Shown: positions 9,061 to 48,625 of the stretch, one piece after another
Layout: every line of letters begins with the position of its first letter
Position numbering within the stretch: position 1 is the first letter of the stretch
Origin: a virus
Taxonomy: Duplodnaviria; Caudoviricetes
Length of the DNA: 58,560 bases
IMG/VR virus record: IMGVR_UViG_3300009149_000037
Span: 1 to 58,560 of that record
Reading direction: 5' to 3' (one strand)
Translations under genes and position numbers: made by a program
The notes under the pieces: model-generated
The model's input: only the letters and a program-made list of their open reading frames with translations
What the model was told of the DNA's origin: nothing
Database searches by the model: none

Positions 9061-9083
9061 CAAAAACTTGACTGGAGCTACTC

Positions 9084-10746: not shown

Positions 10747-11024
10747 AGAATCTTCTAATTGTCTTGATTATTATTTCAACATCCTCAACAGCACTCGCTG
10801 ATTGGATTCAATATCGTTCTGGCTACACAATCTACTATCACACGCATCACTATCATCCCGACTTTGGAAACGCTGGTTGGGGCAGTTTAGTTCCAACCTA
10901 CAGACCCCCAATTTATCAGTATCAAACTCAATACAAATACTATCCAGGAACTGGCTGGATCAGTAATCAAGCATCAGACCGTCAGAAGCGAATGGAAGCT
11001 CATCACAATTCGTGGAGATACTAA
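10743..11024 (+). CDS. Small secreted Tyr/His-rich protein
   Basis: N-terminal signal peptide MKNLLIVLIIISTSSTALA. Confidence 0.55.
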   Translation: MKNLLIVLIIISTSSTALADWIQYRSGYTIYYHTHHYHPDFGNAGWGSLVPTYRPPIYQYQTQYKYYPGTGWISNQASDRQKRMEAHHNSWRY

Positions 11025-11042
11025 TTACAAAAGGAATCAAGG

Positions 11043-11291
11043 ATGGTTCTAGCAGTCTTCTTTGCTGGATTGATTGTAGCTCTCTTAGGAGCAATGTGTG
11101 AGAACGCATACCACGCTGGAGATATCAAAGCCACTGGCTTACTCTCTTTGGTCCAGTGTATTTCTCAGGGATTAATTGCGTGGGTCGTTATTGCGGATAA
11201 GTCATTACCCTACTTGATTGCTTCTGCGATGGCCTGGTCAATTGGTTCAATGGTTGGTTGCTACTGGAAAAAATTAAACCATGAAACCTGA
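11043..11291 (+). CDS. Small membrane protein (about 3 TM)
   Basis: Three hydrophobic segments. Confidence 0.55.
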   Translation: MVLAVFFAGLIVALLGAMCENAYHAGDIKATGLLSLVQCISQGLIAWVVIADKSLPYLIASAMAWSIGSMVGCYWKKLNHET

Positions 11292-11415
11292 AAAAGTTCC
11301 TCTAATAGAAAAACTTGTAATCTATTCTATTCTGATTTTTGTTTTCAGTCTGGGAGCAGTTGGGCTTTCTTTACCTGTTATCGGATTTCTCTATGTGATT
11401 GGAGCGTTACCCTGA
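11281..11415 (+). CDS. Small membrane protein (44 aa, not in ORF track)
   Basis: MKPEKVPLIEKLVIYSILIFVFSLGAVGLSLPVIGFLYVIGALP*; fills the gap and overlaps both neighbours. Confidence 0.5.
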   Translation: MKPEKVPLIEKLVIYSILIFVFSLGAVGLSLPVIGFLYVIGALP

Positions 11416-11975
11416 TGGCTAGATGCTTCATTGTTCTTGGGATGCCCAGAACAGGCACGTCACTCACGACGGGAATTCTCAACAATATGGGAGTCTATGT
11501 TGGAGAATCTCGAAAGGGAAAAAACAATCCTTGCTACTACGAAAACAAAGCTCTTTTTGATTTCATCAATCGAGTGCCTGGGGTTTCAGCAGGTCAAGTT
11601 GTTTCTTCAATCGAACGAGAAGCTCAAGGCAAAGACTATGGAATGAAGCATCCTTCAATCGTAGAAAGGTGGCACGAATTTAAGCCTCATATTCCAGAAC
11701 CAGTCTTTATTGTTACTCATCGAAGAGACGCTGATGCTCAATACAACTCTCATCGGTCAGCAATCAATAGACAGCATCGACCAGAATTCAATGAGAGAAA
11801 TCGAGTCTACTATCAGAAAGTCTTAGAAGCGATCAACGGTTATCCTTCATTCAATGTTTTCTATGAAGACTGGCTCAAAGACTTCACCCAATTACAAAAG
11901 ATGGCAGACTTCTTCAATCTGACTGTAACTCCTGAAGCCAGAAAACTCGCTGATCCAAAACTCAAACATTTTTAG
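11415..11975 (+). CDS. Sulfotransferase family protein
   Basis: PAPS-binding loop 'IVLGMPRTGTS', 'YYEN', 'MKHP', 'VFYED'. Confidence 0.8.
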   Translation: MARCFIVLGMPRTGTSLTTGILNNMGVYVGESRKGKNNPCYYENKALFDFINRVPGVSAGQVVSSIEREAQGKDYGMKHPSIVERWHEFKPHIPEPVFIVTHRRDADAQYNSHRSAINRQHRPEFNERNRVYYQKVLEAINGYPSFNVFYEDWLKDFTQLQKMADFFNLTVTPEARKLADPKLKHF

Positions 11976-11984
11976 ACTGGAGCA

Positions 11985-12311
11985 ATGATGGCTGACACAG
12001 AACTTACTAATGATCCTAATGGTATTCCTCACAGACAAATCAATCCAAAAACAGGGCAGCAAGCAGCCTATGTAGTTCTTTCTGAAGAAGAACGGAAAAA
12101 GGGTTTTGTTGAGCCTCTTCGCCGCAAATACATTCATAAATCTTGTGGTTGCATAACAACAATTGGTTTGTCAATTGCCGAAACCTACGCACGACAACCT
12201 GAATTTTACTCAGGAACTTTTTGTATTGGTTGTAAATTACATTTTCCTCTCGAAGAATTTGTGTGGGATGGTACGTCACAAACTGTAGGAACAAGGAGTA
12301 CAAATCAATGA
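11985..12311 (+). CDS. Phage hypothetical protein, putative Zn-binding
   Basis: 'YIHKSCG..TFCIGCKLHFP' HxxC/CxxC pairs; GACTGGAGC RBS. Confidence 0.6.
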   Translation: MMADTELTNDPNGIPHRQINPKTGQQAAYVVLSEEERKKGFVEPLRRKYIHKSCGCITTIGLSIAETYARQPEFYSGTFCIGCKLHFPLEEFVWDGTSQTVGTRSTNQ

Positions 12312-12949
12312 GTCAAACGATGGAAGACGTCAGAAAACGAAATGCCTTAATGGCATCAACCTACATTCCAGATTGTTCAAAAGGTCCAGGAGCTTTCTAC
12401 AACATTGGTGTTGGACCACTTATCAAATCAGAATGGAGACACTGGAAAGAACTGTATCCAGAAATGCAACTCTTTGGATGTGAGCCAAATCCAGTTCTCT
12501 ACTCACAACTGCTGATGAAGTTTCCTGGTAGACTTTTCAGTTGTGGTATCTCAGACAAAGAGTCCATTGAGATGTACATGGAACCTGAAAAAGAAAAGAC
12601 ATTCGGACGTTCCAGCATATTTCCAGTCAATGGTCTTTCAGATAAAACAATCAGGGTTGAGTGCATTACCCTCAATGAATTTGATCAAGAAGTCGGTTCT
12701 CTAGAATCAATTCTTCTTTGGATGGACATTGAAGGTTCAGAACTCATTGCTCTCAAATCTGGCGAGGAACTTCTCAAATCTGGAAGGGTTCACACTATCA
12801 ATCTTGAACTAAGAGACAAACCAGAAATAGAAGGTTGGCCAACAGCAACGGAAATCACAGAATACCTTTCCACAATTGGATTCAAGAAAGCTGTGGACTA
12901 CAACAATCAGGTTTCACATTGGGATACTATTTTCACGAAAGTGAAGTGA
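12308..12949 (+). CDS. FkbM family SAM-dependent methyltransferase
   Basis: 'NIGVG', 'GCEPNP', 'ITLNEF', 'WMDIEGSE'. Confidence 0.85.
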   Translation: MSQTMEDVRKRNALMASTYIPDCSKGPGAFYNIGVGPLIKSEWRHWKELYPEMQLFGCEPNPVLYSQLLMKFPGRLFSCGISDKESIEMYMEPEKEKTFGRSSIFPVNGLSDKTIRVECITLNEFDQEVGSLESILLWMDIEGSELIALKSGEELLKSGRVHTINLELRDKPEIEGWPTATEITEYLSTIGFKKAVDYNNQVSHWDTIFTKVK

Positions 12950-12952
12950 CTC

Positions 12953-13828
12953 ATGAGAATCTACTACATAGGCAAATTCAAAGAAGAACACAACACAGAA
13001 AACTACGTCACCGCTGCCTTCGAAGAATTAGGCCACAAAGTCTATCAATACAAACACAACAAAAAGGAAACTCTTGCTCAAATCTTCAATCGAATTCAAG
13101 AGTTTGGAGCAGACACAGTTCTCTTCAGTAAAGCAGAATTTCCAGAAGCAAAAAAGTTGATTGATCTTTGCTATGCGAAAGGAATTCTGACTGTCTGCTG
13201 GCAATTCGATTTATTCATTGGATATCGCTCAAAACTCCCAGAACAATTCTGGTCTGATTTTCTCTTTACAACAGATGGTGGACACCAAAGAGAGTTTATC
13301 AAGCTTCGATGCAATCATCGTTTGCTGCGTCAAGGAATTCATAAACCAGAAGCCATCAAGATAGACTCTACAGAATACAAATACGATGTAGCGTTCGTTG
13401 GTAGTTGCACTCACGTAAGTCATGAATCAAGACGGAACCTTTTGAAGTTCCTTCAACAAAGAAAAAGCTTCATTCATTATCAGACCATGAGAGGCTTGAA
13501 ACTGAATGAAGCTTTAAATCAAGTCAAAATCGTCGTCGGTGATTCTTATCCTTCACCAAATTACTGGAGCAATCGAATCTATGAAATCACTGGCCGAGGT
13601 GGATTCTTTCTACACCCATTCACAGAAGGCTTAGACTCAGAGTTTGAAGATGGCGAACACTACGTTGGTTATCAGCGAGGCAACTACAAACAACTCTGTG
13701 ATCGCATTGATCTTCTTCTCAGGGAAGATTCGGCGAGGGAAAGAATCCGCCAAGCTGGGTTTGAGAAGACTCGCAATTGCTACACCTACACTCACAGAGT
13801 TCAAGAATTGCTTTCAATAATTTCTTGA
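12953..13828 (+). CDS. GT-B glycosyltransferase (CgeB/Glyco_trans_1_2-like)
   Basis: 'YDVAFVGS', 'YWSNRIYEITGRGGF', 'YTYTHRVQELL'. Confidence 0.85.
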   Translation: MRIYYIGKFKEEHNTENYVTAAFEELGHKVYQYKHNKKETLAQIFNRIQEFGADTVLFSKAEFPEAKKLIDLCYAKGILTVCWQFDLFIGYRSKLPEQFWSDFLFTTDGGHQREFIKLRCNHRLLRQGIHKPEAIKIDSTEYKYDVAFVGSCTHVSHESRRNLLKFLQQRKSFIHYQTMRGLKLNEALNQVKIVVGDSYPSPNYWSNRIYEITGRGGFFLHPFTEGLDSEFEDGEHYVGYQRGNYKQLCDRIDLLLREDSARERIRQAGFEKTRNCYTYTHRVQELLSIIS

Positions 13829-24628: not shown

Positions 24629-25101
24629 ATGAAAGATTTAGCCTCTCAAATAGCCTCTATGGTTGAAGACAAACCTGATTCAACTCTCACGATTAGAGTT
24701 GTTAAAGATAGACTTAGAATGGACTTTGTAGTTCCTTGGGACAAAAAGGAATTAAGAAGAAGCTCAGAGATTGTCTTAAGTAATTTGTTTCGACATAGAT
24801 TCCCCTCGATTCAAGTAAGTAAGTTACTAAGAAAAACTGAACAAGACATTGATAAGATTTTACTTTCAGATCCAAATTATATTGAAAAATATATTGGAAA
24901 GGACTGAGAGAAATGAAAATTGTTCAAATAATTGTTTCGCATACTCTGAAGAGAAATGGAATTGACAAACATCGAAAATGTACTTTGACAATTCCAAAAG
25001 CTTTCTCTGATCAATATCCAAAGTCTCAACAATTCGTTGTTGAACAACATGGTTTGAATCTTCTTTATGTTCCTGTGGAAAACTTCAAGAGACAAACATG
25101 A
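24629..25101 (+). CDS. Two hypothetical proteins (24629-24907, 24913-25101)
   Basis: ORF track; AT-rich. Confidence 0.45.
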
Positions 25102-25646
25102 AAACGATAAACTGGAAACGACACAAAGAAAATTGGATGGATTGCGACAAATGCAGTCTTTGTGAACGTCGAAGCAAAGTAGTTTTGTTGAAAGGTAAAG
25201 TTCCTTGTGATGTTCTTTTCGTTGGAGAAGCTCCAGGAGTTGGAGAAGATACAATTGGAAAACCTTTTGTTGGTCCTGCTGGTTATCTATTAGACCAAAT
25301 GATTGAAGCTGCTGAACCACTAGAGATAAGACTTGCCTTCACAAATCTGGTTGCTTGCATTCCCAAAGATGAAGAGGGAATAAAGATGAAAAATCCACCA
25401 AAAGATGCAATCATGAAATGCTCTAAGAGACTTCAGGAAGTGGTCAAGCTTTGTAAGCCAACTCATGTTATTTGCGTTGGTAAGCTTTCTTCAAAATGGT
25501 GTCGTCAATTTATTGAAGGAGTTACCTTTGAGGATATCATTCATCCAGCCTCAATCCTCAGAGCAGACATTACTCAACAAGGATTAGCAATTCAGAGAAA
25601 TGAAACTCTGATGGGAAATCTCTTCAGAAGTCTGATTCCTTTTTGA
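25098..25646 (+). CDS. udg: Family 4 uracil-DNA glycosylase (SPO1 polymerase-associated type)
   Basis: Fe-S 'CDKCSLC', 'FVGEAPG', 'GKPFVGPAG', 'TNLVAC', 'HPA'. Confidence 0.9.
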   Translation: MKTINWKRHKENWMDCDKCSLCERRSKVVLLKGKVPCDVLFVGEAPGVGEDTIGKPFVGPAGYLLDQMIEAAEPLEIRLAFTNLVACIPKDEEGIKMKNPPKDAIMKCSKRLQEVVKLCKPTHVICVGKLSSKWCRQFIEGVTFEDIIHPASILRADITQQGLAIQRNETLMGNLFRSLIPF

Positions 25647-32072: not shown

Positions 32073-34082
32073 ATGATTTCATGTGACACGGAAACGACAG
32101 GGCTGGATTTCAAACATGGAACAAAACCTTTTCTAGTTACGATCTGCGATGAGAAACAAAATAATACATGGTGGGAGTGGGATGTTGATCCTTTAACAAG
32201 ACAACCTCAAATCCCGGAAAAAGATATTTCGCAGATTCGAAAGAAGCTCTATCAACAAGAATTGGTATTCCATAATCCGAAATTTGATTTCAGAGCGTTG
32301 GATACTATTTCTTCTGATTGGCCTGATAGAGATTGGAATTTAGTTGATGACACTCTGACTGCTTCACATTTACTTGCTTCCAATCAGCCTCCTGACTTAA
32401 CCAACTTGAGCATGATTTATCTTGGGGTGAATATCAAACCTTATGAAGATGCAGTTCAAGAAGCTTCGAATCAAGCTAGACGAATTGCCCGAAGTAAATT
32501 TCCAGAATGGAAAATTGCTAAAAAAGGAATGAAGGAACTTCCATCTTCTACGGGAGACCTCTGGGCCAACGATATGTGGCTTCCAAGAGCCATTGCAATG
32601 GAGTTGAATTATCCGGGAGATCATCCCTGGTGGACTGTTACTTCTGACTACGCAAATGTTGATACTGCTTCAACGATGCTTCTACATCAAGTTTTTGTAG
32701 AGCAACTTGAAGAAGAAGGATTGACGGAAATCTACAAAGAGCGATTGAAGTTACTTCCAATCATTTATGATATGGAAAGTAAAGGCATTTCACTGAGCAA
32801 AAAACGGCTGGAAGAACTCTACACTCAATACAAAGAAGAGTTTGATGCTTACAGCAAAACTTGTTTGAAGATTTCAGAGAAGGCTGGTTGTGAATTGGTA
32901 TTACCAAAAGGAGCTTCACCAACCAAGACCCTCAAAGAATTCTGCTTCACAGAACCGAAAGGTTTGAAGCTACCAGTTTTGAAGACAACAGATACTGGTC
33001 AACCCTCAATGGACAAAGAGACCAAAGCTTTGTATCTGTTGACGCTGCCTGAGAAATCCAAGCAATACAAGTTCATGCGAGCGTTGGATTCCAGAGCATC
33101 TCTTGCTACCTCAATCAACTACATGGACAGCTACAGAAAGTTCATGGTTGATGGTAGACTCTATTCTTCGATCAATCCGACTGGTACAACTACGCTGAGG
33201 ATGAGCAGTAACAATCCAAACCAACAGCAGATCAGTAAGAGGATTGATAAGCATGGAAGGAATCTGAGATATCTGTTTGGTCCAGAAAAAGGCAAGGTTT
33301 GGGTCTCAATTGACTACGACAATCTGGAGTTGAGAATTCCAGCTTATGAGTGTCGAGAGATTGCAATGCTCGACCTCTTTGAGAATCCAGATAAGGCTCC
33401 ATTTTTTGGTTCTTACCATTTGCTGATTGCTTCGATAATTCATCCCAAAGAGTGGAAAGTTTGCTTGAAAGAAGCTGGTCCTCAATACGTTGCTGAACTC
33501 TTGAAGAAGAAATTCAAGGATACTCTGTACCAATGGACGAAGAATGGAAACTTCGCTGAAATGTATGGAGCAGTTGATACTCACGACGGTCAAGGAACGG
33601 CTGATAAAGCTTTTCATGTGCCTGGTGCTCAAGAGATAATCTCTAAGAAGCTGACCAGGAAAAACGCTCTCAATAGTCAGTACATCAAATTCGCAAACGA
33701 ACACGGATATGTTGAGACGCTGCCAGACACTGAGGTTTCTGAGCGAGGATATCCGTTATACTGCTCACGAACCAATAGAGGCTACGTGAAGCCCACGATA
33801 CCACTCAATTACCACGTACAAGGAACAGCTTGTTGGATTATGATGCGAGCGATGGTTAAGGTTCAAAACTACTTCAACACTTTGCCTGATTCTATTGGAG
33901 CTAGAATCGTAATGAATGTTCATGATGAATTGGTGCTAGAGTTTTCTTCAGGGAGTAACTGGAAACCAAAAGTAAGAAGGGTAAGGACTTTGATGGAGTC
34001 TATTGGTAAAGTTCTTCAACCTCAAATCAAACTTACTTGTGGCGTAGACATTCACACTAACAATTGGAGTCAATCAGCATGA
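32073..34082 (+). CDS. polA: Family A DNA polymerase with 3'-5' exonuclease
   Basis: ExoI 'DTETTG', ExoII 'FHNPKFD', 'TTTLRMSSNNPNQQQI', motif A 'IDYDNLELR', motif B 'KNGNFAEMYG', motif C 'VHDEL'. Confidence 0.95.
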   Translation: MISCDTETTGLDFKHGTKPFLVTICDEKQNNTWWEWDVDPLTRQPQIPEKDISQIRKKLYQQELVFHNPKFDFRALDTISSDWPDRDWNLVDDTLTASHLLASNQPPDLTNLSMIYLGVNIKPYEDAVQEASNQARRIARSKFPEWKIAKKGMKELPSSTGDLWANDMWLPRAIAMELNYPGDHPWWTVTSDYANVDTASTMLLHQVFVEQLEEEGLTEIYKERLKLLPIIYDMESKGISLSKKRLEELYTQYKEEFDAYSKTCLKISEKAGCELVLPKGASPTKTLKEFCFTEPKGLKLPVLKTTDTGQPSMDKETKALYLLTLPEKSKQYKFMRALDSRASLATSINYMDSYRKFMVDGRLYSSINPTGTTTLRMSSNNPNQQQISKRIDKHGRNLRYLFGPEKGKVWVSIDYDNLELRIPAYECREIAMLDLFENPDKAPFFGSYHLLIASIIHPKEWKVCLKEAGPQYVAELLKKKFKDTLYQWTKNGNFAEMYGAVDTHDGQGTADKAFHVPGAQEIISKKLTRKNALNSQYIKFANEHGYVETLPDTEVSERGYPLYCSRTNRGYVKPTIPLNYHVQGTACWIMMRAMVKVQNYFNTLPDSIGARIVMNVHDELVLEFSSGSNWKPKVRRVRTLMESIGKVLQPQIKLTCGVDIHTNNWSQSA

Positions 34083-34924
34083 AAATTTCTGATGTTAAAA
34101 AGTTGACTACACAAAAGAGATTTTTGTATTGGATTAAAGAACGGGAATCTATCAGAAAAAAGAAAGAGGCAAAAAAGTCTAAGCCATGGACTGATGATGA
34201 AATTTTTGTAACATACAAATTCTGTAATGTTAGAAGAATGGATGATAGAGTTAGCCAATGGCTTCTCAAAAACTGGTTCATTCCTTATTATGATCACCCA
34301 AACATGTTAACTGCTTGTACACTAGCAAGGGAAATTAACAACACTGATTCTTTAGAAGAAATTGGATTTCCTAATTCTTGGCGTCCAAAAAGAGTTCAAA
34401 AAATTCTTGAATCAAGAGTTGAAAGAGGGTTGAAAGTTTTTTCTGGAGCCTATATGATTACAGGCACTCTTGGAGGAACAAAAATAGAACAAGTTGTCAA
34501 TAAAGTTGTTACCCCTATTCACAAAAGTAAAATAAAATTGAACAAAAATTCAATGCAAGAATCTTGTACAATGTTGTTACCTTTTGCGGGGTTTAGCCAT
34601 TTCATTTCTGGGCAAGTAATTGCAGACATGAGACAATCTTCAGAAGGCCATTGGTCTGATGCTAAAGAATGGGCTCCTATGGGTCCTGGTTCTAAGAGAG
34701 GGATGAATCGTTTGTTAGGGAATGATAAAGACAAACCAATGAAACAAGATGTATTTCTTGGTTTTCTAAAAGATGTAATTGAATTGGTTGAAAAAAATCT
34801 TCCGGAAATTGCTTTAAGACTTGAAGCAATTGATGTACAAAACTGTCTTTGCGAGTTTGATAAGTACAGCCGAACAATATTTGGTGAAGGTCGTCCAAAA
34901 TCTAAATATCCAGGAGGTGTCTAA
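34079..34924 (+). CDS. 5-hmdU DNA kinase helical component (aGPT-PPlase1 family)
   Basis: 'FLYWIKERESIR..PWTDDEIFVTYKFCNVRRMDDRVS', 'GPGSKRG', 'QNCLCEFDKY'; ATGA overlap with polA. Confidence 0.85.
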   Translation: MKISDVKKLTTQKRFLYWIKERESIRKKKEAKKSKPWTDDEIFVTYKFCNVRRMDDRVSQWLLKNWFIPYYDHPNMLTACTLAREINNTDSLEEIGFPNSWRPKRVQKILESRVERGLKVFSGAYMITGTLGGTKIEQVVNKVVTPIHKSKIKLNKNSMQESCTMLLPFAGFSHFISGQVIADMRQSSEGHWSDAKEWAPMGPGSKRGMNRLLGNDKDKPMKQDVFLGFLKDVIELVEKNLPEIALRLEAIDVQNCLCEFDKYSRTIFGEGRPKSKYPGGV

Positions 34925-34925
34925 C

Positions 34926-35501
34926 ATGATAGTTAGTCTGAGAGGGACACATGGTAGTGGAAAATCAACTGCTGTAAGAAGGTTTCTTTCCAGATATCCA
35001 GGATACGAATCAATTCCTGGAAAGAAACATCCAGAAGGATATAGAGTTACTATATCAGAACTTTCAAAACCTCTTTATATTGTTGGTCATTATGAGACAC
35101 CTTGTGGTGGGTGTGACAGCATTCAACCCTATAGTTTGATTTGGCCAAGAGTTGTTTCTTATGCTGAAAAAGGACATGTACTTTTTGAAGGTGCTCTTGT
35201 TAGTAGTAGCTATGGTAACATTGGAAGAGCCAGTGAAGTTTATGGTGATGAAGTGGTATTTGCTTTCATGGACACACCCTTAGAGAAATGTATAGAAAGA
35301 ATCAAAAAACGAAGAGAACAATCAGGTAAGTCTTACACCAAACCATTCAACCCAGCTAACACAATTTCAAAAGCTAAAAATGTAACAAGGAGCATTGAAG
35401 TCATAACAAAAATTGGTCGTAGAGTTGTAATTGTTAATCACAAAAAAGCAACAAACATAATTCTTAGATTGTTTAAGGAGTTTGACAATGTTGAAAACTA
35501 A
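34926..35501 (+). CDS. P-loop kinase (5-hmdU DNA kinase catalytic partner)
   Basis: 'SLRGTHGSGKST', 'GHYETPCGGCD', 'VLFEG', 'DTPLEKCIERIKKRR'. Confidence 0.8.
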   Translation: MIVSLRGTHGSGKSTAVRRFLSRYPGYESIPGKKHPEGYRVTISELSKPLYIVGHYETPCGGCDSIQPYSLIWPRVVSYAEKGHVLFEGALVSSSYGNIGRASEVYGDEVVFAFMDTPLEKCIERIKKRREQSGKSYTKPFNPANTISKAKNVTRSIEVITKIGRRVVIVNHKKATNIILRLFKEFDNVEN

Positions 35502-36660
35502 AGACTGGAGATTACCAGAAAACAGGATAGAAGCTTTTACAAGAGTTGTTCATAGTAGGATGGTTGAAGGGGATTTAGATCATCATCATTCTGCACAAGT
35601 TATATCTTCTGAGATGTCTTTATCAGATGATGACAAGCTTCTATATGCATTGTTGTTTGGCCAAAGCTATAGAAATCATTGGGCTATGCTATCTTTACAA
35701 TTATGGCCTGATCTTCTTTCTAGAAAACATTCAGAGCTTGTAAAATGGCACAACAAAAATTACAAGAGATTGGTATTTGCCAAAGATACAAAATGGAATT
35801 TAAGGAAGTGGCCTGATTTTGTTGAATGTATCCGAAAGAAGTACAAAGGTGTTTCTCTGTGTGAGCATTTTGGAAACTTGTGCAGTAGCGATTCTGCCAA
35901 GGTAAACTATGACAGAGTCAATAAAGAGTTGAGATCAATCTGGTCAATTGGTAGAATGTGTGCCTGGCTTGCACAACAAACTATGTATGAGTTGTTTGAT
36001 TGGAATTTAGATCATTGGGATCAACAGTTGTATGACTCAGGAACCTGGTCACAGTATGATTCTTTGTGTTATTTGTTTGATAGAATAGACTTGGCCAGGA
36101 CTCAGATAGTTTCTGGAAAAAGAGTAAAAAGAAAACCTTCTAGAGAAGACATATCTTTGATGGAAGTCAACACCCAAAAATTGATGGGAATCTTGAACAA
36201 AAGAATACCATTTCATGTTGATATCTATAATGTTGAAAGTGCTGAATGTGAATACAGAAAAACTGCCTATGGACCTAATAGAATAAAGGAGTTCACTTTC
36301 TGGACTACAAATGAATTGGTAGAAGAATATCAACACTTGAAATCTTTGTGGAATCCTGAAGAACAATCTGGAAAAATAACTTGGAATCCTTACATGATTG
36401 CACTAATGACTAAGGGAAAAAATGTTAGAGATTATGGTTGGCATCCAGATTACTTCAGGGTTCTCTATGATTATGGAATGAATTTGAATACACATTACAT
36501 TTATAAGGATGAACCTGATGCACATGAGGTCTTAAGCTTACCAAAGAATATTTCAGACTCTTTCAGGATTCTCAAACGTGAATGGTTAGATATTTCTAAG
36601 TCCGAAAGATTAAACCTTAGAAAAATGTACAACCCCAAAAACTTTTTAAGGAGTAACTGA
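35488..36660 (+). CDS. Amino acid:DNA transferase homolog (aGPT-PPlase2 / ADDT)
   Basis: 'DWRLPENRIEAF', HhH-like 'IWSIGRMCAW', 'VESAECEYRK'; adjacent to the 5-hmdU kinase genes. Confidence 0.75.
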   Translation: MLKTKDWRLPENRIEAFTRVVHSRMVEGDLDHHHSAQVISSEMSLSDDDKLLYALLFGQSYRNHWAMLSLQLWPDLLSRKHSELVKWHNKNYKRLVFAKDTKWNLRKWPDFVECIRKKYKGVSLCEHFGNLCSSDSAKVNYDRVNKELRSIWSIGRMCAWLAQQTMYELFDWNLDHWDQQLYDSGTWSQYDSLCYLFDRIDLARTQIVSGKRVKRKPSREDISLMEVNTQKLMGILNKRIPFHVDIYNVESAECEYRKTAYGPNRIKEFTFWTTNELVEEYQHLKSLWNPEEQSGKITWNPYMIALMTKGKNVRDYGWHPDYFRVLYDYGMNLNTHYIYKDEPDAHEVLSLPKNISDSFRILKREWLDISKSERLNLRKMYNPKNFLRSN

Positions 36661-37418
36661 TGTCCAAAGTTAAAAATGCAACTGATTCAAGTTATGAAAT
36701 GAAAGAAGAAGGAAAATTCAAATGTTACATTAGGGAAAATTCTTCCGATGCTGTAGTCTTTAAAGATAACCTTCAAAAATGTCCTATTGAAAAGCACATT
36801 GAAGTAAATGAGAATCAGAAATGGGTTGACTTAGGTGGATACATTGGTACATTTGCAATGTTTCTCAGGTCTAGAGGTGTTGTTCCAACTTTTTCTGTAG
36901 AAGCTGATCCAGACAATGCTGAAATGTATGTAAAGAATATGGATCTCAATGGGATTAAGGATTACAAGCTTTTAAACAAAGCAGTGTTTCTAAATCCTCA
37001 AAAACCTGTAATGACTCTTTACAAGGGGAGCAAAGGAAGTAGAAAGAATCATGCAGCAAATACGTTTTTCTCTAGATGGAAAACTGAAAGGGACACATTA
37101 GAAATTCCAACAATTTCGTTTGATAAGGTTATGAAACAAGCGATCAAATATCTAGGAAAAGGAGGTGAATGGAATTTGAAGCTTGATATTGAAGGTGCTG
37201 AAATTGATATTCTTGAACGTGCTGATTTATCAATGTTTAACAACTTTTTCTTTGAGTATCATTTTCAAGCCGATAAATCTGTGAAACGAGCAAAAAGAAT
37301 ATTCAAGATGTTCAGATCAAAAGGATACACAGTAAAGACTAGTATCTCCCTTCCAAAAACTGCCGAACCTGAATACTGGACTCAAGAAGTGTTCATTGCT
37401 TGGATTTTCAAATCTTAG
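36660..37418 (+). CDS. FkbM family methyltransferase
   Basis: 'VDLGGYIGTF', 'VEADPDN', 'LKLDIEGAE', 'FEYH'. Confidence 0.88.
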   Translation: MSKVKNATDSSYEMKEEGKFKCYIRENSSDAVVFKDNLQKCPIEKHIEVNENQKWVDLGGYIGTFAMFLRSRGVVPTFSVEADPDNAEMYVKNMDLNGIKDYKLLNKAVFLNPQKPVMTLYKGSKGSRKNHAANTFFSRWKTERDTLEIPTISFDKVMKQAIKYLGKGGEWNLKLDIEGAEIDILERADLSMFNNFFFEYHFQADKSVKRAKRIFKMFRSKGYTVKTSISLPKTAEPEYWTQEVFIAWIFKS

Positions 37419-37431
37419 AAAGAAGTTAAAA

Positions 37432-38586
37432 ATGTCAAACCCTATTCGTGTTGCTGTAATTGGAGTGGGCAATTGTGCTAAGTCACTTATCTGTGGTGTT
37501 GCTTCTTACAAAGAAACAAAATCCACACAAGGACTTGCTTTTGCAAAAATTGGAGGTTACAAACCAGGAGATATTGAATTTGTGGCAGCCTATGATGTAG
37601 ACACAAGAAAAGTTGGTAGGCCCCTTAAAAAAGCAATTTATGGATTGCCAAATTGTTCTGACGATTTCGATGTTAATCAAGAAGAATTGAGTTCAATTTG
37701 TTCTGGAACAATTGTTAAGAAAGGAGCGGTATATGATGGGGTTGCTTCTCACATGTTAATTGCTCCAGAAGATGAAGGATTCAGAATAACAAAAGATCCA
37801 GAACCTTCTTTAGAAGATGTTGTTCAAGAACTCAAAAACTCCAAGGTAGATATCTTATTGAACTATCTTCCTGTTGGGTCTGAAGTAGCAACAAGATTCT
37901 ATGTTGAAGCTTGCTTGAAGGCAAAAGTTCCTTTTGTGAATTGTATTCCTGTGTTCATTGTTTCCGATCCTTTCTGGGAAGAAAAATTAAAGGAAAGAGG
38001 TATCCCTGCAATTGGAGATGACATGAGGTCACAGTTGGGTGCTTCAGTAGTATCACAGGCTCTTCAGGAATTGTTTTTCAACAGAGGAATGAATATACAA
38101 TTCCACTGTCAAACGAATCATGGAGGAAATACAGATTTCTTGAATATGGTAGATCAAACTCGTCTAGCTTCTAAGAAGATTTCAAAAGAAAATGTCATTC
38201 GGTCTCAAAATGACCTGAGAGGAATTCCTGTTCCAAAGAACGGAATTTATGCTGGTCCATCTTCGTACATTGCCCATCATGGGGACAATAAAATCGCTCA
38301 CTTCAGAATAGAAGCTACTGGTTTTGGAGGGGCAAAAGTTGAATTTGATGCTAAGCTCTCTGTACAAGACTCACCTAACTCTGCAGGAGTCGTGATTGAC
38401 GCTATAAGGTATCTACAGGTCGCTAAAGAAATGGGCCTCACTGGGTCTCTCAGAGGTCCTAGTGCAGCCACTCAAAAAACTCCCCCAGAACAGATGATGA
38501 TACAGGACGCTCACGAGGAATGTAAGACTCTTGCTGAGAGAAAACTTACTTCTTCCCTCTTACAACACAATAAGGTGTCTAAATGA
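37432..38586 (+). CDS. ino1: myo-inositol-1-phosphate synthase
   Basis: 'GVGNCA', 'NYLPVGS', 'GDDMRSQLGA', 'GGNTDFLNM', 'SKKISK', 'DSPNSAG'. Confidence 0.95.
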   Translation: MSNPIRVAVIGVGNCAKSLICGVASYKETKSTQGLAFAKIGGYKPGDIEFVAAYDVDTRKVGRPLKKAIYGLPNCSDDFDVNQEELSSICSGTIVKKGAVYDGVASHMLIAPEDEGFRITKDPEPSLEDVVQELKNSKVDILLNYLPVGSEVATRFYVEACLKAKVPFVNCIPVFIVSDPFWEEKLKERGIPAIGDDMRSQLGASVVSQALQELFFNRGMNIQFHCQTNHGGNTDFLNMVDQTRLASKKISKENVIRSQNDLRGIPVPKNGIYAGPSSYIAHHGDNKIAHFRIEATGFGGAKVEFDAKLSVQDSPNSAGVVIDAIRYLQVAKEMGLTGSLRGPSAATQKTPPEQMMIQDAHEECKTLAERKLTSSLLQHNKVSK

Positions 38587-38960
38587 TTAATTCCTACGAC
38601 ATAGATGGTGTTATCTACATGGGTCCTGAATACCTCGGAGTGAGTCCAGAGGAAGAAGACGTAATAATTACGGGGAGGTCATTTGAAGAGGCATCTGAGA
38701 CGTCTCAGATGCTTTGTGAGAGAGGCATCAACAACAAGGTACACTATAACCCAAAGCTCTTTAGCAATAAGACTAGAGAATCCTCAGGATTTCACAAAGT
38801 GACAATTTTGAAAAAGTTAATCTCTGAAGGTATGCCTATTGGGATACATTTTGAAGATGATCCAATCCAAGCTGAGATAATACAAAAAAATGTTTCAGGA
38901 CTCCAAGTTGTGTTGTTAGTACATAACCTTGTAGAAAAAGAGAATGTTCGTCATTTATAG
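38583..38960 (+). CDS. Capless HAD-superfamily phosphatase
   Basis: Motif I 'YDIDGV', II 'ITGR', III K, IV 'HFEDD'; ATGA-type overlap with ino1. Confidence 0.85.
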   Translation: MINSYDIDGVIYMGPEYLGVSPEEEDVIITGRSFEEASETSQMLCERGINNKVHYNPKLFSNKTRESSGFHKVTILKKLISEGMPIGIHFEDDPIQAEIIQKNVSGLQVVLLVHNLVEKENVRHL

Positions 38961-38965
38961 ATGTG

Positions 38966-39005
38966 AAAAAAGCCTCTCAGATATCTAACTGAGAGGCTTT
39001 TGTTT
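38966..39005. terminator. Bidirectional rho-independent terminator
   Basis: AAAAGCCTCTCAG / CTGAGAGGCTTTT between convergent genes. Confidence 0.85.
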
Positions 39006-39022
39006 GTGGTACGGGAAATTGT

Positions 39023-39430
39023 TCAGTCAAACTTCACAGCAAGACCTTTCTTTGTTAGATAATAACATGTTCCTCTTACTTCTTCAGAAACAATTGATGA
39101 AACAAACCCTTGAACCACAAGATCATATTTCAGATTCAATTGGTTACGTACCAGAGCAAAATCTACTTTACCCTTTTCTGCAATGACAGCAACTGTCGCA
39201 GCAGTCTTGGAAGAAATTGCTCCGGCATTTTTCATTGCTTCGAACAACGCTTTCTTCTTTGGTGACCACTTGATTTTTTTGTTCAATTGGTCAGAAATTT
39301 CTTTTGGTCCCTTAGATTTTTTGACTACAGATTTTGGAGAAGCCTTTTTCGTCGTCTTCTTTTTCTTTGTTGTTTCAATTGCAGTGGTTTTCTTCGTCGT
39401 CTTCTTTTTCTTTGGGGTTGCAGTCGTCAT
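39023..39430 (-). CDS. Lys/Thr-rich (histone H1-like tail) winged-helix DNA-binding protein
   Basis: N-terminal 'PKKKKTTKKTT..KKKKTTKKASPK'; C-terminal wHTH-like '..YYLTKKG'. Confidence 0.65.
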   Translation of the reverse strand: MTTATPKKKKTTKKTTAIETTKKKKTTKKASPKSVVKKSKGPKEISDQLNKKIKWSPKKKALFEAMKNAGAISSKTAATVAVIAEKGKVDFALVRNQLNLKYDLVVQGFVSSIVSEEVRGTCYYLTKKGLAVKFD

Positions 39431-39459
39431 TTCAAGTCTCCAGTCTAAGAACAATGGAA

Positions 39460-39527
39460 GGCTGCCATCTTCAGGCCAGAGGAACCAAACCTCTGACGAC
39501 TCTCTCCCGCCATGAGAGAGTTTCGGC
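39460..39527 (-). ncRNA. Type II hammerhead ribozyme
   Basis: Minus strand: GCC-GAAA-CTCTCTC(ATGGCGG)GAGAGAG-TC^-GTCAGAGG(TTTGGTT)CCTCTGGC-CTGAAGA-T-GGC-AGCC; complete core plus L1/3'-tail pseudoknot. Confidence 0.9.
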
Positions 39528-39528
39528 T

Positions 39529-39702
39529 TTACTTAACACACTCTACAAGACCAAAAAACCTTTGAACTGTTTCATCAGCAAATTCACAATACGTGTAGGT
39601 CCTAGTCTTGACAACCGATTCAACGCGAGACATTCTGTTCTCGTTGAACACTACGGTATCGCCCACTTGAAGTTCTGAGTAAGTTCGCTTGATTGTTTCC
39701 AT
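39529..39702 (-). CDS. Small SH3-like hypothetical protein
   Basis: CTGGAG RBS; 'ELQVGDTVVF..RVESV'. Confidence 0.6.
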   Translation of the reverse strand: METIKRTYSELQVGDTVVFNENRMSRVESVVKTRTYTYCEFADETVQRFFGLVECVK

Positions 39703-39761
39703 TTTAGTGCTCCAGTTTTCGTTTCGGGTTTCGGTTATAATTCGTCTCTCCAACAAAAGCA

Positions 39762-39790
39762 GTTATCGTCACTCTTGGACGAAAAGTAAA
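39762..39790 (-). promoter_or_regulatory. Early promoter TTTACT-N17-GATAAC, third copy
   Basis: GTTATC 39762-39767 and AGTAAA 39785-39790, 17-nt spacer. Confidence 0.75.
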
Positions 39791-39849
39791 GTTCAAATGA
39801 TAAAAATCTTCAAAGAAAATCTAAAGTTTTCAAAACTACAGGAAATCCA

Positions 39850-41001
39850 ATGCATTTAAAGACAAAAAACGTCAACACCGCGTTCGCTGATCTGGTCAAA
39901 TCCTTCTGCGATTCCGAAGAGGTTGAAGAGACGGAGACCAGAAATGGCAAAGTCAAAGTCTTCTCAGAGCCTGTCACGATTACGTTTGAGAATCCTACAG
40001 AACGGGTTCTCTTCAATCGAGCAAGAGACGCCAATCCATTCTTCCACGTCTTTGAATCTCTATGGATGCTCGCTGGCAGAAATGATTTGAAACCTCTACT
40101 GAAATACGTTTCGACCTTTGGAGATTTCAGCGATGACGGCGAGACTCTCAATGGAGCCTATGGTTATCGTTGGAGACAAGCTAATGCTTCGGAAAATCAT
40201 CCTGAAGGAAGTTGGCAGGGAGACCAATTGAATATACTTGTAAGCCATCTTAAGAAGAATCCAACAAGTCGCAGAGCAGTTCTGCAAATGTGGAATGTAG
40301 AAGACGATCTGTTGAATGTTGATTCTTCAAAAGACGTTTGTTGTAATCTCTCTGCTTGCTTTTCAATTAGAGTTACAGGAGAAGTTTGCTCCAGATGCGG
40401 TAAAGAAACAGACCCAGAGCTTGGAATACCAAATCACACAAGTACTTGTAATCTTTCAAAAGGAAAACCTGTAAAGACTCCAATCAAATACTTAGACATG
40501 ACTGTTTTCAACCGCAGTAATGATATGGTCTGGGGAACTTGCGGAGCCAACGCTGTTCACTTTTCTTTTCTCCAGGAGTATATGGCCAAGCGTCTTGGAG
40601 TTAGAGTTGGTAAGTATCATCAAGTTTCTAACAACCTTCACGTCTATACTGAAACAAATTCTGGTTGGACTCCAGATAAGTGGTTAGATTATGCTGACGA
40701 ATACTCTTATGAGCAAGACGTTAAAATACAAGTTCCTCTGGTAGATGACCCTGAGACCTTTGATAGAGAAGTTCAGAAGTTCATTGACTACGGCGACTCA
40801 AGTAGAAGTTGGAAAGAACCTTTCCTTCATAAAGTAGCTGCTCCTATGGTCTGGGCCTTTGAACATCATAAAAGACGATCTTACAGTGACGCTTTAACAG
40901 CTTGTATCGTTATCAAAGATGACGCTTGGAGACTCGCTGCAACCAATTGGATTTTGAAACGACAAGAAAATTGGAAAAAGAAAAATGAAAGTAACAGTTG
41001 A
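39850..41001 (+). CDS. Thymidylate synthase homolog, probable dUMP hydroxymethylase
   Basis: 'SRRAVLQMW', catalytic 'CCN', 'RSND', 'GANAVHF' (Asn, dUMP-specific position), 'NNLHVY'; context of 5-hmdU kinase genes. Confidence 0.85.
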   Translation: MHLKTKNVNTAFADLVKSFCDSEEVEETETRNGKVKVFSEPVTITFENPTERVLFNRARDANPFFHVFESLWMLAGRNDLKPLLKYVSTFGDFSDDGETLNGAYGYRWRQANASENHPEGSWQGDQLNILVSHLKKNPTSRRAVLQMWNVEDDLLNVDSSKDVCCNLSACFSIRVTGEVCSRCGKETDPELGIPNHTSTCNLSKGKPVKTPIKYLDMTVFNRSNDMVWGTCGANAVHFSFLQEYMAKRLGVRVGKYHQVSNNLHVYTETNSGWTPDKWLDYADEYSYEQDVKIQVPLVDDPETFDREVQKFIDYGDSSRSWKEPFLHKVAAPMVWAFEHHKRRSYSDALTACIVIKDDAWRLAATNWILKRQENWKKKNESNS

Positions 41002-41323
41002 TGATTTGAAACCGGAAGATGTTCGAACTCAACATTCTAAATGTCGAGGGTGTGATGCTAAAATAGGAACACCTCATTTTGACAATTGTGATTTATCTCC
41101 AATTCCAGAAATCAATTCAAAACAAATTGGAGGGAATCACTACAAAGGAGAAGGAGAACAACACTGGGATATGATGTGGCGTCTCTATGGAGAATCCTGG
41201 TTTGTAGGCAACATCACGAAGTATGTATTGAGATACAAAAAGAAGAATGGATTGCAAGATTTAGAAAAAGCAAAACACTATCTTGACAAACTCATTGAAC
41301 TGGAGACTTCAAATGAATCTTAA
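40985..41323 (+). CDS. DUF3310 (T7 gp1.7-related nucleotide kinase-like) protein
   Basis: 'QIGGNHY', 'GNITKYVLRYKKKNGLQDLEKAKHYL'. Confidence 0.85.
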   Translation: MKVTVDDLKPEDVRTQHSKCRGCDAKIGTPHFDNCDLSPIPEINSKQIGGNHYKGEGEQHWDMMWRLYGESWFVGNITKYVLRYKKKNGLQDLEKAKHYLDKLIELETSNES

Positions 41324-42233
41324 CGACTACGCTGAGAAGGCAATGGAGACTGAAGCAGACCAAGAAGTGATTGCAAACAGACTTGGACGATTGACTGAAA
41401 GCAATTACAAAGTGTTTGTTAGACTCAATAATGGTATCACTGGTCTATCTGATGAGATTGGAGAACTTAATTCTGCTTTGAAGAAATGGATTGAGTATGG
41501 TCAACCTCTTGATCGAGAAAACGTCAAAGAGGAAGTTGGAGATTGTCTTTGGCGTCTCGCTCAAATTTGTAAAGCTTGCGACTTTACTCTGGACAAAGCA
41601 GCAGAAGCCAACATCGAAAAACTCCAAAGGCACCGATACAAAGAAGGTTACTCTGATGAAGCGGCCAGAGAAGAAAACAGAGACCGTATCTCTGAGGCTT
41701 CTGTAATGCGTTCCACAGATGAATTGACTCAAGAAGTAATTGATCAAGTGAACGAAAAGAAATGCAAAGGAAAACTCTGTAGTCCTGTAGCAAACTCTCA
41801 AATGATGCAAACTGGTCAAGGTTTCGCTGAACCTCCAGAAGCTTACGACGATTATCAAACAGACCCTCTACCCAATGAATCAATTCAAATTCAACCATCT
41901 CAAACTTATCAAGAAGCTTATGATAATAATGGGCCAGAAGAAGAAGATGGTCCTTGGGCAGAAGGGTGGGAAAAAAGAAGCGGAATTGAAGAATCTTACG
42001 ACGATTATCAAACAGACCCTCTACTCAACAAAGCAGAATCCCATCGTTACCATATTCCAAAGTTTCCAGAAAGTTTTAATGAAACTCTGCCTGGGCGTTT
42101 AATCAAATCAAAACTAGATCAAGTCATTTCAGTCTGGGAAGATGCTGCGATAGCAATTGCAGGAATGGTAGAAGGTCAAGATCATAAAATGGCTTTGAAA
42201 ATGATTGAGAGAGCAAAGGAGCAAACTCAATGA
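41313..42233 (+). CDS. MazG-like dNTP pyrophosphohydrolase with acidic C-terminal extension
   Basis: 'GLSDEIGEL..EEVGDCLWRLA..ANIEKL..RY'. Confidence 0.85.
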   Translation: MNLNDYAEKAMETEADQEVIANRLGRLTESNYKVFVRLNNGITGLSDEIGELNSALKKWIEYGQPLDRENVKEEVGDCLWRLAQICKACDFTLDKAAEANIEKLQRHRYKEGYSDEAAREENRDRISEASVMRSTDELTQEVIDQVNEKKCKGKLCSPVANSQMMQTGQGFAEPPEAYDDYQTDPLPNESIQIQPSQTYQEAYDNNGPEEEDGPWAEGWEKRSGIEESYDDYQTDPLLNKAESHRYHIPKFPESFNETLPGRLIKSKLDQVISVWEDAAIAIAGMVEGQDHKMALKMIERAKEQTQ

Positions 42234-47135: not shown

Positions 47136-47466
47136 ACTGCCCAAATTGACTCTTGACGTTCTATTGAAGTTTGCAGAAGAACATTCAAAAGACAAATTTG
47201 ATATTAACCATAGTAAAACCTGACTGGCCGTTCAATGTGCTGCCCAGTTAGGGTACACCGACCCAGGTATGGGTGGATATTCTACACTCCAATACCAAGA
47301 TGGGTTTAACGATTGGAAAGAGCGTTCCATTGATGAAGTCTACGCCAAATGGTGTGAAGATACAGTCAAATTGAGAGGAACTAACAAATCACAAGTCTGG
47401 ATGACTGGAGCAAAAATAGTTACTTCAATCAAGGAATACGTTAAGGATCACAATCATGAAGGTTGA
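47119..47466 (+). pseudogene. Hypothetical gene interrupted by in-frame TGA (47221-47223)
   Basis: GAAGGAGA RBS, MSLKSKLPK..HSKT*LAVQCAAQLG.., continuing in frame into the 47269-47466 ORF. Confidence 0.5.
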
Positions 47467-47995
47467 AAAAGAGAACAAATTCCTTTTCAAAGAAACTCTG
47501 GCACTACTCAAACCAGAATCAACGATCGTAGAACTTGGAACAATTCGAGACAGCAATCCCAAAGCAGAATTCACAGATGGCTGGAGCACTCTTCAATGGT
47601 ATCTTGCAGGACACGAAGTACATTCAATTGACACAGACTTTAGAGCACTCAAAATATGTGAGTTGACATTGAGACTTGAGACAACTCCTCGAACAAAACT
47701 CCCAGTGTTTCCTTATTTGGTTCACTGCAATGCTTTAGCTTTTCTCAGGGAAATGTGGCCTAAGTTAGACGCTCCAATTGATCTTCTCTACATTGATGCT
47801 CCAATAGGTCAGGAAGCTGCTGATTGTTTCATGCTCGCTGATAAATGGATTCAAGAAGGTGGCTTAGTTCTCGTAGATGATATTGAAGAGAACCACACTC
47901 AAAGAAAAGAGTTGTTACTGCCTGCAATCCTTGAAGCTGGATACGTTGAACTACATAACAATGGCAGACAATCACTACTTCAAAAACAAGGCTGA
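47456..47995 (+). CDS. Class I SAM-dependent methyltransferase (Methyltransf_24-like)
   Basis: 'IVELGT', 'HSIDTD', 'IDLLYIDA', 'GGLVLVDD'. Confidence 0.85.
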   Translation: MKVEKENKFLFKETLALLKPESTIVELGTIRDSNPKAEFTDGWSTLQWYLAGHEVHSIDTDFRALKICELTLRLETTPRTKLPVFPYLVHCNALAFLREMWPKLDAPIDLLYIDAPIGQEAADCFMLADKWIQEGGLVLVDDIEENHTQRKELLLPAILEAGYVELHNNGRQSLLQKQG

Positions 47996-47998
47996 GGT

Positions 47999-48625
47999 AT
48001 GAAACTATTTGATAGAGAAGTTGCTCGACAGACTCTGATTGATGTGTATCCAATCTTGAGTCCCTACTTTGCTTTGGCTCATGGAACAGTCTTAGGAGCT
48101 TACAGAGACAAAGATTTCACTCCAACAGAAGTAGATATTGATTTGCTAACAACGGTCGAAGTGATGGCAGAAAATGCTGAACTACTTCTTATAGCTTTGG
48201 AGCGTGAAGGATTTGTCAGTAGGGTAATTGAGAAACCCAATGGGGCTATCAGAGCGTTTTCAGTAAAGAGAAACGGTATCAAGATTGATTGTGCCGGATA
48301 CACGAAACATATTTTGAAGAGCAGCCAGGAATACAACACGTCTCTACACTCACTGATCAATTCTCGACCTAGATGTCTTTCGGCTTATAGAGAAGTAGGC
48401 TACTCAACTTCAACGCTTAAGGATTTTTCGATCGTTCATCCTTATTCCTTTTTCCTCAGGGAGAATATGGAGACGATTGATTTTCAGGGATTACCTTGGA
48501 AGATTCCTTCCCCAATTGAAGAGTATCTTGAAAGGGAGTATGGATCAGAATGGGAGACACCAATTCGTACTCACATGCAACAATCACGTATCTATCACTT
48601 TGAAACTCTGGAAGGAATATCATGA
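47999..48625 (+). CDS. licD: LicD/fukutin-family phosphoryl-ligand transferase
   Basis: 'HGTVLGAYRDKDFTPTEVDID', 'IPSPIEEYLEREYGSEWETP'. Confidence 0.82.
   Translation: MKLFDREVARQTLIDVYPILSPYFALAHGTVLGAYRDKDFTPTEVDIDLLTTVEVMAENAELLLIALEREGFVSRVIEKPNGAIRAFSVKRNGIKIDCAGYTKHILKSSQEYNTSLHSLINSRPRCLSAYREVGYSTSTLKDFSIVHPYSFFLRENMETIDFQGLPWKIPSPIEEYLEREYGSEWETPIRTHMQQSRIYHFETLEGIS

Follow-up and report, generated by a model that had tools for sequence, protein, structure and literature searches.

To our knowledge, the thymidine hypermodifications with a known pathway all derive from amino acids or polyamines, and the known bulky polyol adducts of DNA are all sugars added by glycosyltransferases. 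Here we describe an operon in the IMG/VR virus record IMGVR_UViG_3300009149_000037 (58,560 bases, estimated 82% complete; this whole stretch is called the window) that couples the machinery for acting on 5-hydroxymethyldeoxyuridine (5-hmdU) in DNA to a homolog of myo-inositol-phosphate synthase (MIPS, or Ino1), a small HAD phosphatase, and an FkbM-family methyltransferase. It is firmly supported that this operon is a thymidine-hypermodification system of the type built on a 5-hmdU DNA kinase (5-HMUDK) and an amino-acid:DNA transferase (ADDT), and the group that it attaches is probably derived from inositol.

The closest described systems are those of the phages PaMx11 and ViI. The 5-AcNmdU cluster of PaMx11 comprises gp46 (PUGT/ADDT), gp47 (a flavin adenine dinucleotide [FAD] lyase), gp48 (an acetyltransferase), gp49 (5-HMUDK), gp50, and gp51, a homolog of thymidylate synthase (TS). 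According to Table 1 of Lee 2021, gp49 was shown by experiment to be a 5-hmdU DNA kinase and gp46 is a glycine:DNA transferase. The 5-NeOmdU pathway of ViI consists of 5-HMUDK (gp67/gp243), the serine:DNA transferase gp247, and the pyridoxal phosphate (PLP) decarboxylase gp226; the ViI ADDT uses a hydroxyl oxygen as nucleophile, yielding an ether at the C5 methyl (Lee 2021). In addition, the Figure 2 legend of Lee 2021 lists metavirome thymidine-hypermodification clusters linked to TET/JBP (sequences 22-25), with TET/JBP, ADDT, and P-loop kinase.

Like PaMx11, the window belongs to a PolA-type phage and encodes homologs of gp49, gp50, and gp51 (35%, 28%, and 39% identity; E 2e-32, 7e-30, and 6e-84), and its transferase shares the fold and the Glu-(Ser/Thr)-x-x-Cys motif of gp46. 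Unlike in PaMx11, this transferase is about 100 residues longer and related to gp46 only by fold and Pfam profile, and the window has no FAD lyase or acetyltransferase but MIPS, HAD, and FkbM in their place. The logic of a kinase followed by an ADDT is that of ViI, whereas the window lacks a PLP decarboxylase, a cyclitol made by the phage takes the place of the cellular amino acid as proposed nucleophile, and tblastn with the window ADDT-like protein did not detect gp247. T4-like relatives of the operon carry TET/JBP, ADDT-like, and P-loop kinase genes as the metavirome clusters do, whereas the window uses a TS homolog instead of TET. The genes of the window operon and its surroundings are as follows.

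32073-34082, + strand: family A DNA polymerase, PolA (Pfam DNA_pol_A, 119 bits; 3'-5' exonuclease, 24.8 bits)
34079-34924 (open reading frame [ORF] from 34064), + strand: HMUDK_hel, or aGPT-Pplase1, helical protein, a PUGT-superfamily paralog (PF18723, 147 bits)
34926-35501 (ORF from 34821), + strand: P-loop 5-hmdU DNA kinase (35% identity to PaMx11 gp49)
35488-36660 (ORF from 35482), + strand: ADDT-like transferase with PUGT fold (Pfam ADDT, 30.0 bits versus a cut-off of 26.2)
36660-37418, + strand: FkbM-family S-adenosylmethionine (SAM) methyltransferase (Pfam Methyltransf_21, PF05050, 39.6 bits)
37432-38586 (ORF from 37396), + strand: MIPS/Ino1 homolog (PF01658, Inos-1-P_synth, 84 bits)
38583-38960, + strand: capless HAD (DxDxT) phosphatase, 125 amino acids (motifs and model; no hidden Markov model match)
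39850-41001, + strand: TS homolog, probable dUMP hydroxymethylase (Pfam Thymidylat_synt, 79 bits)
40985-41323, + strand: DUF3310 protein (PF11753, 45.6 bits)
41283-42233 (start uncertain, 41283-41343), + strand: MazG-type nucleotide pyrophosphohydrolase (Pfam MazG, 37.4 bits)

The six + strand genes at 34079-38960 directly follow polA and are translationally coupled. The polA stop overlaps the ATG of the HMUDK_hel gene by 4 bases, and if each gene takes its likeliest start, four of the junctions between polA and HAD are overlaps (4, 14, 1, and 4 bases) and the other two leave 1 and 13 bases free. A first-pass annotation, made from the DNA letters alone, had named these families and claimed tight coupling after polA. 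All of the families are present on the + strand by Pfam, NCBIfam, homology, or fold matches, every junction is an overlap or at most 13 bases wide, and the TS homolog, DUF3310, and MazG placed nearby were each matched by Pfam. What it called an "aGPT-PPlase1-type 5-hmdU DNA kinase" turned out to be two proteins, both present, of which the helical one is separate and not itself the kinase. Its statement that PLP decarboxylase and radical SAM genes are missing holds for the 30 window proteins scanned with Pfam, which matched neither family and no FAD or acetyltransferase tailoring gene either. Megablast of the window region against 50,697 phage records gave no match and no near-identical GenBank phage.

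Related genes from a second locus, L064, the closest relative, retain 69% identity to the window in MIPS, 61% in the kinase, 58% in HMUDK_hel, 53% in the TS homolog, and 45% in the ADDT-like protein. The window kinase scores 18.8 bits against Pfam HMUDK_HMUD1, under the cut-off of 27, and its start at 34926 is preceded by AGGAGG. A frameshifted fusion of HMUDK_hel and kinase was considered and rejected, because the kinase has its own ATG and AGGAGG, lies 1 base past the upstream stop, and is a separate gene in L064. In HMUDK_hel, C263, E264, and K267 (numbering of the 286-amino-acid ORF) are conserved in five homologs. The TS homolog falls far under the cut-offs of all NCBIfam thymidylate synthase equivalogs; judged from its sequence, it is a probable dUMP hydroxymethylase and the source of 5-hmdU rather than a methylase.

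The ADDT-like protein is predicted to be a group-transfer enzyme acting on 5-phosphomethyl-dU. Its AlphaFold model, built with 25 homologs (pLDDT 90.8), has PaMx11 gp46/PUGT (8z2n) as its best PDB fold match (E 2e-3, probability 1.0, TM 0.55), and the next matches, DNA glycosylases at E about 1, lie far behind. The motif E250-S251-x-x-C254 is invariant in the ADDT-like clade and is placed on E243-T244-x-x-C247 of PUGT by an hhalign alignment to gp46 (21 columns, E 0.17) that serves for placement only. In PUGT, Glu243 and Thr244 are metal ligands and Cys247 is the nucleophile proposed to attack C6 (Wen 2024). Homologs of the ADDT-like protein number 76 at 38 to 62% identity in a collection of 5.8 billion proteins, and among 1.84 billion representatives its profile retrieved 175 clusters at 50% identity, of which 29 matched at E<=1e-30.

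Gene neighborhoods tie MIPS and HAD to this transferase. Searches with single proteins returned no related loci, and alignment-based profiles of the ADDT-like protein and MIPS found them. One sample consists of 36 IMG/VR loci from the ADDT-like profile scan, that is, chosen through ADDT; the other consists of the best 80 of the 576 viral contigs that encode MIPS relatives, which are the nearest relatives of the window MIPS and not a random draw (79 with a called MIPS ORF). On the ADDT side, MIPS lies directly downstream of the ADDT-like gene in 34 of 36 contigs, the other two ending at the ADDT gene, and HAD also follows in 33 loci, one further locus ending before it. Tet_JBP dioxygenase (84 bits) is found in 29 and Ploopntkinase3 kinase (50.5 bits) in 26 of the 36. 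When the window, Caulobacter phage Cr30, and Ralstonia phage RP13 are added, these loci group into 19 lineages at 90% identity and into 11 at 70%. The first-pass annotation had allowed that ino1 might prove unlinked to ADDT in relatives; instead, ADDT-like, MIPS, and HAD genes form a conserved cassette throughout the 19 ADDT lineages.

On the MIPS side, an ADDT-like gene stands within 6 kb in 44 of the 79 loci, c13 in 26, a QueC-like gene in 5, and none of these in 4, two of which are short contigs whose lineage mates have c13. Counted as 51 lineages at 90% identity, the corresponding numbers are 24, 20, 5, and 2. By hhalign, the c13 protein is a relative of HMUDK_hel (probability 89.5, E 2e-6), and it keeps a Glu-x3-Cys motif (E382, C386), and hhalign of c14, c34, c9, c180, and c181 against ADDT and HMUDK_hel revealed no relation. 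Thus counted, 44 of the 51 MIPS lineages adjoin a PUGT-superfamily protein, either ADDT-like or c13; 58 of 60 MIPS lineages stand beside DNA-base-modification genes, and HAD follows MIPS in 51 of 60. The neighborhoods fall into the following cassette types, with alternatives or optional genes in parentheses.

Type A, T4-like contigs: TET/JBP - (FkbM, GT4, or nothing) - ADDT-like - MIPS - HAD - kinase
Type B, the window and L064, with L027-L030 similar: PolA - HMUDK_hel - kinase - ADDT-like - (FkbM, or unknown protein and TAGT-like) - MIPS - HAD ... TS homolog - DUF3310 - MazG
Type C: DUF1599 - short TS homolog - dCMP deaminase - (UDG) - MIPS - (nucleoside deoxyribosyltransferase-like) - HAD - c13 - c9 - C5 DNA methyltransferase - DUF3310
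Type D, Stenotrophomonas phage Moby and other lineages: MIPS - HAD - QueC-like

The same ADDT-MIPS-HAD core is found with two unrelated routes to 5-hydroxymethyluracil (5-hmU), namely TS with PolA in the window, L064, and L027-L030 and TET/JBP in the T4-like contigs and Cr30. The linkage strongly supports the conclusion that, with either route, MIPS and HAD form one functional unit with a PUGT-superfamily transferase. To the general cassette, the window adds the PolA/TS-type architecture, both PUGT-superfamily paralogs, and an in-operon FkbM gene. DUF3310 recurs in L027-L030 and in ADDT-less cassettes. Cultured phages carry the cassette as well: Cr30 has TET/JBP, ADDT-like, MIPS, HAD, and kinase genes, and RP13 has ADDT-like, HMUDK_hel, MIPS, and HAD genes. 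Two database annotations of cassette genes look wrong. The Tet_JBP homolog of Cr30 (L002, 2709-4037; 77 bits) is entered as "putative SNF2 DNA repair protein," and the proven kinase gene gp49 of PaMx11 (L114, 14218-14787; Lee 2021) is entered as "terminase small subunit."

What do MIPS and HAD do? By sequence, the best PDB match of the window MIPS is Ino1 of Mycobacterium tuberculosis, 1gr0 (272 bits, E 7e-80, residues 12-354 of 367), and the two share the blocks GDDxxSQxGA, SKKISK, and DSxNSAG. The 125-amino-acid protein encoded after it has no Pfam match, even at E<=10, and no NCBIfam match, and a homolog of it matched only Acid_phosphat_B (15.9 bits). Its assignment as a HAD phosphatase, made in the first-pass annotation, is nevertheless upheld by conservation of motifs I to IV in 27 homologs (D6, D8, K72, D92, and D93 invariant, T30 conserved in at least 90%) and by a Rossmannoid HAD fold in the AlphaFold model (pLDDT 95). 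The top PDB fold matches of this model are the T4 Pnkp 3'-phosphatase 5uj0 (E 2.6e-3) and lipin/Pah phosphatases, all at probability 1.0 and E 2.6e-3 to 1e-2.

The accessory genes of ADDT-type cassettes encode FkbM, GT4, and TAGT-like proteins, a cytidylyltransferase-cupin protein, an NT5C-type HAD, a GFO/IDH/MocA oxidoreductase, and homing endonucleases; the accessory proteins of related cassettes that were tested gave no match to a PLP, radical SAM, FAD, or acetyltransferase family. Judged by family, the cassette accessories are enzymes of hydroxyl and sugar chemistry, none of them amino-acid-tailoring, and would suit a polyol. The window FkbM protein passes the cut-offs of both PF05050 (39.6 versus 22.7 bits) and TIGR01444 (50.5 versus 37.7 bits), and the first member of the FkbM family acts by methylating a hydroxyl of a cyclohexane ring. 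A role of the window protein as a DNA methylase was rejected, its DNA_methylase match (16.6 bits) being under the cut-off and confined to the N-terminal part. In L064, the slot of the window FkbM gene is occupied at 6489-8055 by a 230-amino-acid protein without known function and a TAGT-like glycosyltransferase (35 bits); this replacement of FkbM by a TAGT-like gene suggests interchangeable methylation and glycosylation of the same adduct. The T4-like contig L026 encodes at 742-2385, just upstream of its ADDT-like gene, a 547-amino-acid protein with a GFO/IDH/MocA domain (78.5 bits), a family that includes inositol dehydrogenase, and a weak TAGT-like protein after HAD (5244-6029). An oxidized or epimerized cyclitol in L026 is possible.

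We favor, as the probable reading, that an inositol-derived group, O-methylated in the window phage, replaces the phosphate on 5-phosphomethyl-dU. In this scheme, the TS homolog would make 5-hmdUMP, MazG would help to clear competing dNTPs, and PolA is expected to incorporate 5-hmdUTP, placing 5-hmdU in DNA. The P-loop kinase, possibly with the HMUDK_hel protein, would then phosphorylate it to 5-phosphomethyl-dU, and the conserved cysteine of the ADDT-like enzyme would attack C6 with expulsion of the phosphate. By analogy with serine in ViI, where O-serinyl-thymidine is formed, a hydroxyl of the inositol-derived molecule would act as nucleophile and add to the exocyclic methylene, giving an ether-linked cyclitol-thymidine. 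MIPS would supply the group by converting glucose-6-phosphate to inositol phosphate, the capless HAD would take off the phosphate, whether ahead of the transfer or once the group is on the DNA, and FkbM would O-methylate a ring hydroxyl of the cyclitol. The chemistry of each step, the nature of the nucleophile, and the anti-restriction purpose are inferences.

Several observations weigh against this reading and bear on its rivals. For the transferase, a profile of the ADDT-like clade found no PDB sequence at E<=1, the hhalign alignment to PUGT is not significant, and tblastn of the protein against phage genomes did not find M6, ViI, PaMx11, or PhiW-14 and retrieved only Cr30, RP13, and four weak records. 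The clade is thus remote from the characterized ADDTs, and we therefore infer its substrate and nucleophile. This distance leaves room for a PUGT-fold enzyme with another activity, on 5-hydroxymethylcytosine or another base or glycosylase-like, in which case the product of the cassette would differ; DNA glycosylases are the next-best fold matches, and the TET/JBP of the T4-like contigs could oxidize 5-methylcytosine rather than T. However, the Glu-(Ser/Thr)-x-x-Cys motif is invariant, the window enzyme comes directly after a protein homologous to a proven 5-hmdU DNA kinase and lies near a PaMx11-type TS homolog, and the ADDT-type cassettes examined showed no C5-cytosine methyltransferase; we consider such an activity very improbable.

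For the transferred group, MIPS scores 303.5 bits against the Ino1 equivalog TIGR03450, under its cut-off of 638, and its product is not certain because its second-best PDB relative is 6k96 (177 bits), a synthase of a five-membered cyclitol phosphate. The sequence blocks listed above are largely common to 1gr0 and 6k96 and therefore leave the substrate of MIPS unsettled. The proteins closest to HAD in fold have DNA ends and lipids as substrates rather than inositol phosphates; since this fold resembles phosphatases of macromolecular substrates, the phosphate may leave after transfer to DNA and not before. The same cassette could accordingly attach something other than free myo-inositol: either inositol phosphate is transferred and HAD dephosphorylates the DNA-bound adduct, as would befit a model closest to T4 Pnkp and lipin, capless HADs that act on large substrates, or MIPS makes another carbocycle, for example a five-membered cyclitol phosphate from another sugar phosphate. 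We regard this variant as rather unlikely, as M. tuberculosis Ino1 is clearly the nearer relative of MIPS (272 versus 177 bits); the sequence does not decide the order of the steps. FkbM is also far from general in the cassettes. The first-pass annotation had proposed looking in other phages for ino1, HAD, and FkbM together with ADDT, and the co-occurrence holds for ino1 (34/36 loci) and HAD (33/36), but FkbM homologs occur in the MIPS cassettes of only 13 of 60 lineages.

The module also extends beyond ADDT. Non-ADDT MIPS lineages include 20 of 51 with c13 and c9, 5 with a QueC-like gene, and 2 with none of these. Type C without ADDT is found in L045-L063, L069, L075, L083, L084, L098, L101, L104, and L108-L113 (for example, L060 5697-14568); its c9 protein (about 366 amino acids) has no Pfam family, and the ESM Atlas gave only viral hypothetical clusters for it. 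Moby (L001) has the order FolE - MIPS - HAD - QueC - DpdA/TGT - QueE at 7213-12627, and its whole genome contains no ADDT-like gene and no Tet_JBP though MIPS and HAD are present. MIPS - HAD - QueC-like is further found in L073, L074, L080, L103, and L112, and a cyclitol-bearing 7-deazaguanine derivative in Moby-type clusters is conceivable. Because MIPS and HAD stand beside c13 and a C5-methyltransferase, or beside QueC/DpdA without ADDT, the module is not exclusive to the ADDT reaction. The first-pass picture had the families right and was too narrow in scope; its central proposal, a cyclitol attached to thymine, is the one that we hold as probable. The main caution from types C and D is that either cyclitols feed several DNA-modification chemistries or MIPS and HAD have a more general role.

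A general role could mean that MIPS and HAD serve host lipid or thiol metabolism, a virion glycan, or regulation and share their neighbors only as early or nucleotide-metabolism genes, while the ADDT-like enzyme uses a cellular amino acid or polyamine. The three neighbor sets and the Moby genome would fit this, as would the position of T4-like cassettes among replication genes (clamp, clamp loader, helicase, and MazG) and the presence elsewhere in the window of a LicD-family gene and a glycosyltransferase. We nevertheless judge it improbable: adjacency of MIPS to the ADDT-like gene in 34 of 36 contigs comes with translational coupling and persists in myovirus-like and PolA-type contigs despite rearranged surroundings, all but two of the 60 MIPS lineages neighbor DNA-base-modification genes, the accessory proteins tested include no PLP, radical SAM, FAD, or acetyltransferase tailoring enzyme, and 185,579 prokaryote genomes yielded no ADDT-like relative, the 22 pattern stretches of the profile scan all being unrelated.

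Returning to the inositol-derived group, the other arm of that caution leads to a broader proposal that we hold only tentatively, namely, that phages make a methylated inositol ether of thymine and that MIPS with the mini-HAD is a portable "cyclitol donor" module recruited by at least three DNA-base-modification systems: ADDT on 5-hmU; c13 with c9 and a C5-methyltransferase; and the QueC/DpdA 7-deazaguanine system. If true, cyclitol-bearing bases would be a whole undescribed class of DNA hypermodification. In the window, the known kinase/ADDT machinery would be combined with a new class of appended group. The nearest chemical parallels are glucosyl-5-hydroxymethylcytosine of T4 and base J, which are made by glycosyltransferases from UDP-glucose through an acetal linkage. 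They resemble the proposed base in carrying a polyhydroxylated six-membered ring via the C5 hydroxymethyl oxygen, likely for the same anti-nuclease purpose, and differ from it in that the proposed ring is a carbocycle joined by phosphate displacement as an ether. A carbocyclic polyol joined in this manner would add a new chemical class to the natural DNA bases, and it would matter for the evasion of restriction and CRISPR, for sequencing environmental viral DNA, and for enzymatic DNA labeling. MIPS relatives are widespread, as their 576 viral contigs attest, and the complete cassette is available in the cultured and harmless phage Cr30.

Within the literature searched, combining inositol with phage DNA-modification terms found no paper linking inositol to DNA modification, and the phage hypermodification papers retrieved mention inositol only in the names of glycosyltransferase structural matches. 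Neither "inositol" nor "cyclitol" occurs in the main text of Lee 2018 or of Lee 2021; Figure 2 or the supplements of Lee 2021 may show MIPS-bearing contigs. No paper on DNA modification in Cr30 was found, and papers retrieved for Cr30 that were checked for inositol do not mention it.

Other genes of the window lie between or away from those discussed. A 143-amino-acid ORF without family at 39023-39454 on the - strand interrupts the one-directional block between HAD and the TS homolog, and its counterpart in L064 (171 amino acids) has the same position and strand. A UDG-superfamily protein (65 bits) is encoded at 25098-25646, and the prediction for this phage is that 5-hmU derivatives stand in place of thymine; a UDG-like gene is also present in some ADDT-less cassettes (L060 7488-7913). 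Immediately following the small terminase gene, 47456-48625 encodes a Methyltransf_24 protein (25.1 bits, just under the cut-off) and a LicD-family phosphotransferase (28.9 bits), an enzyme for which an activated polyol would in principle be a possible substrate. A Glyco_trans_1_2 glycosyltransferase (62 bits) is encoded at 12953-13828, a long way from the hypermodification operon.

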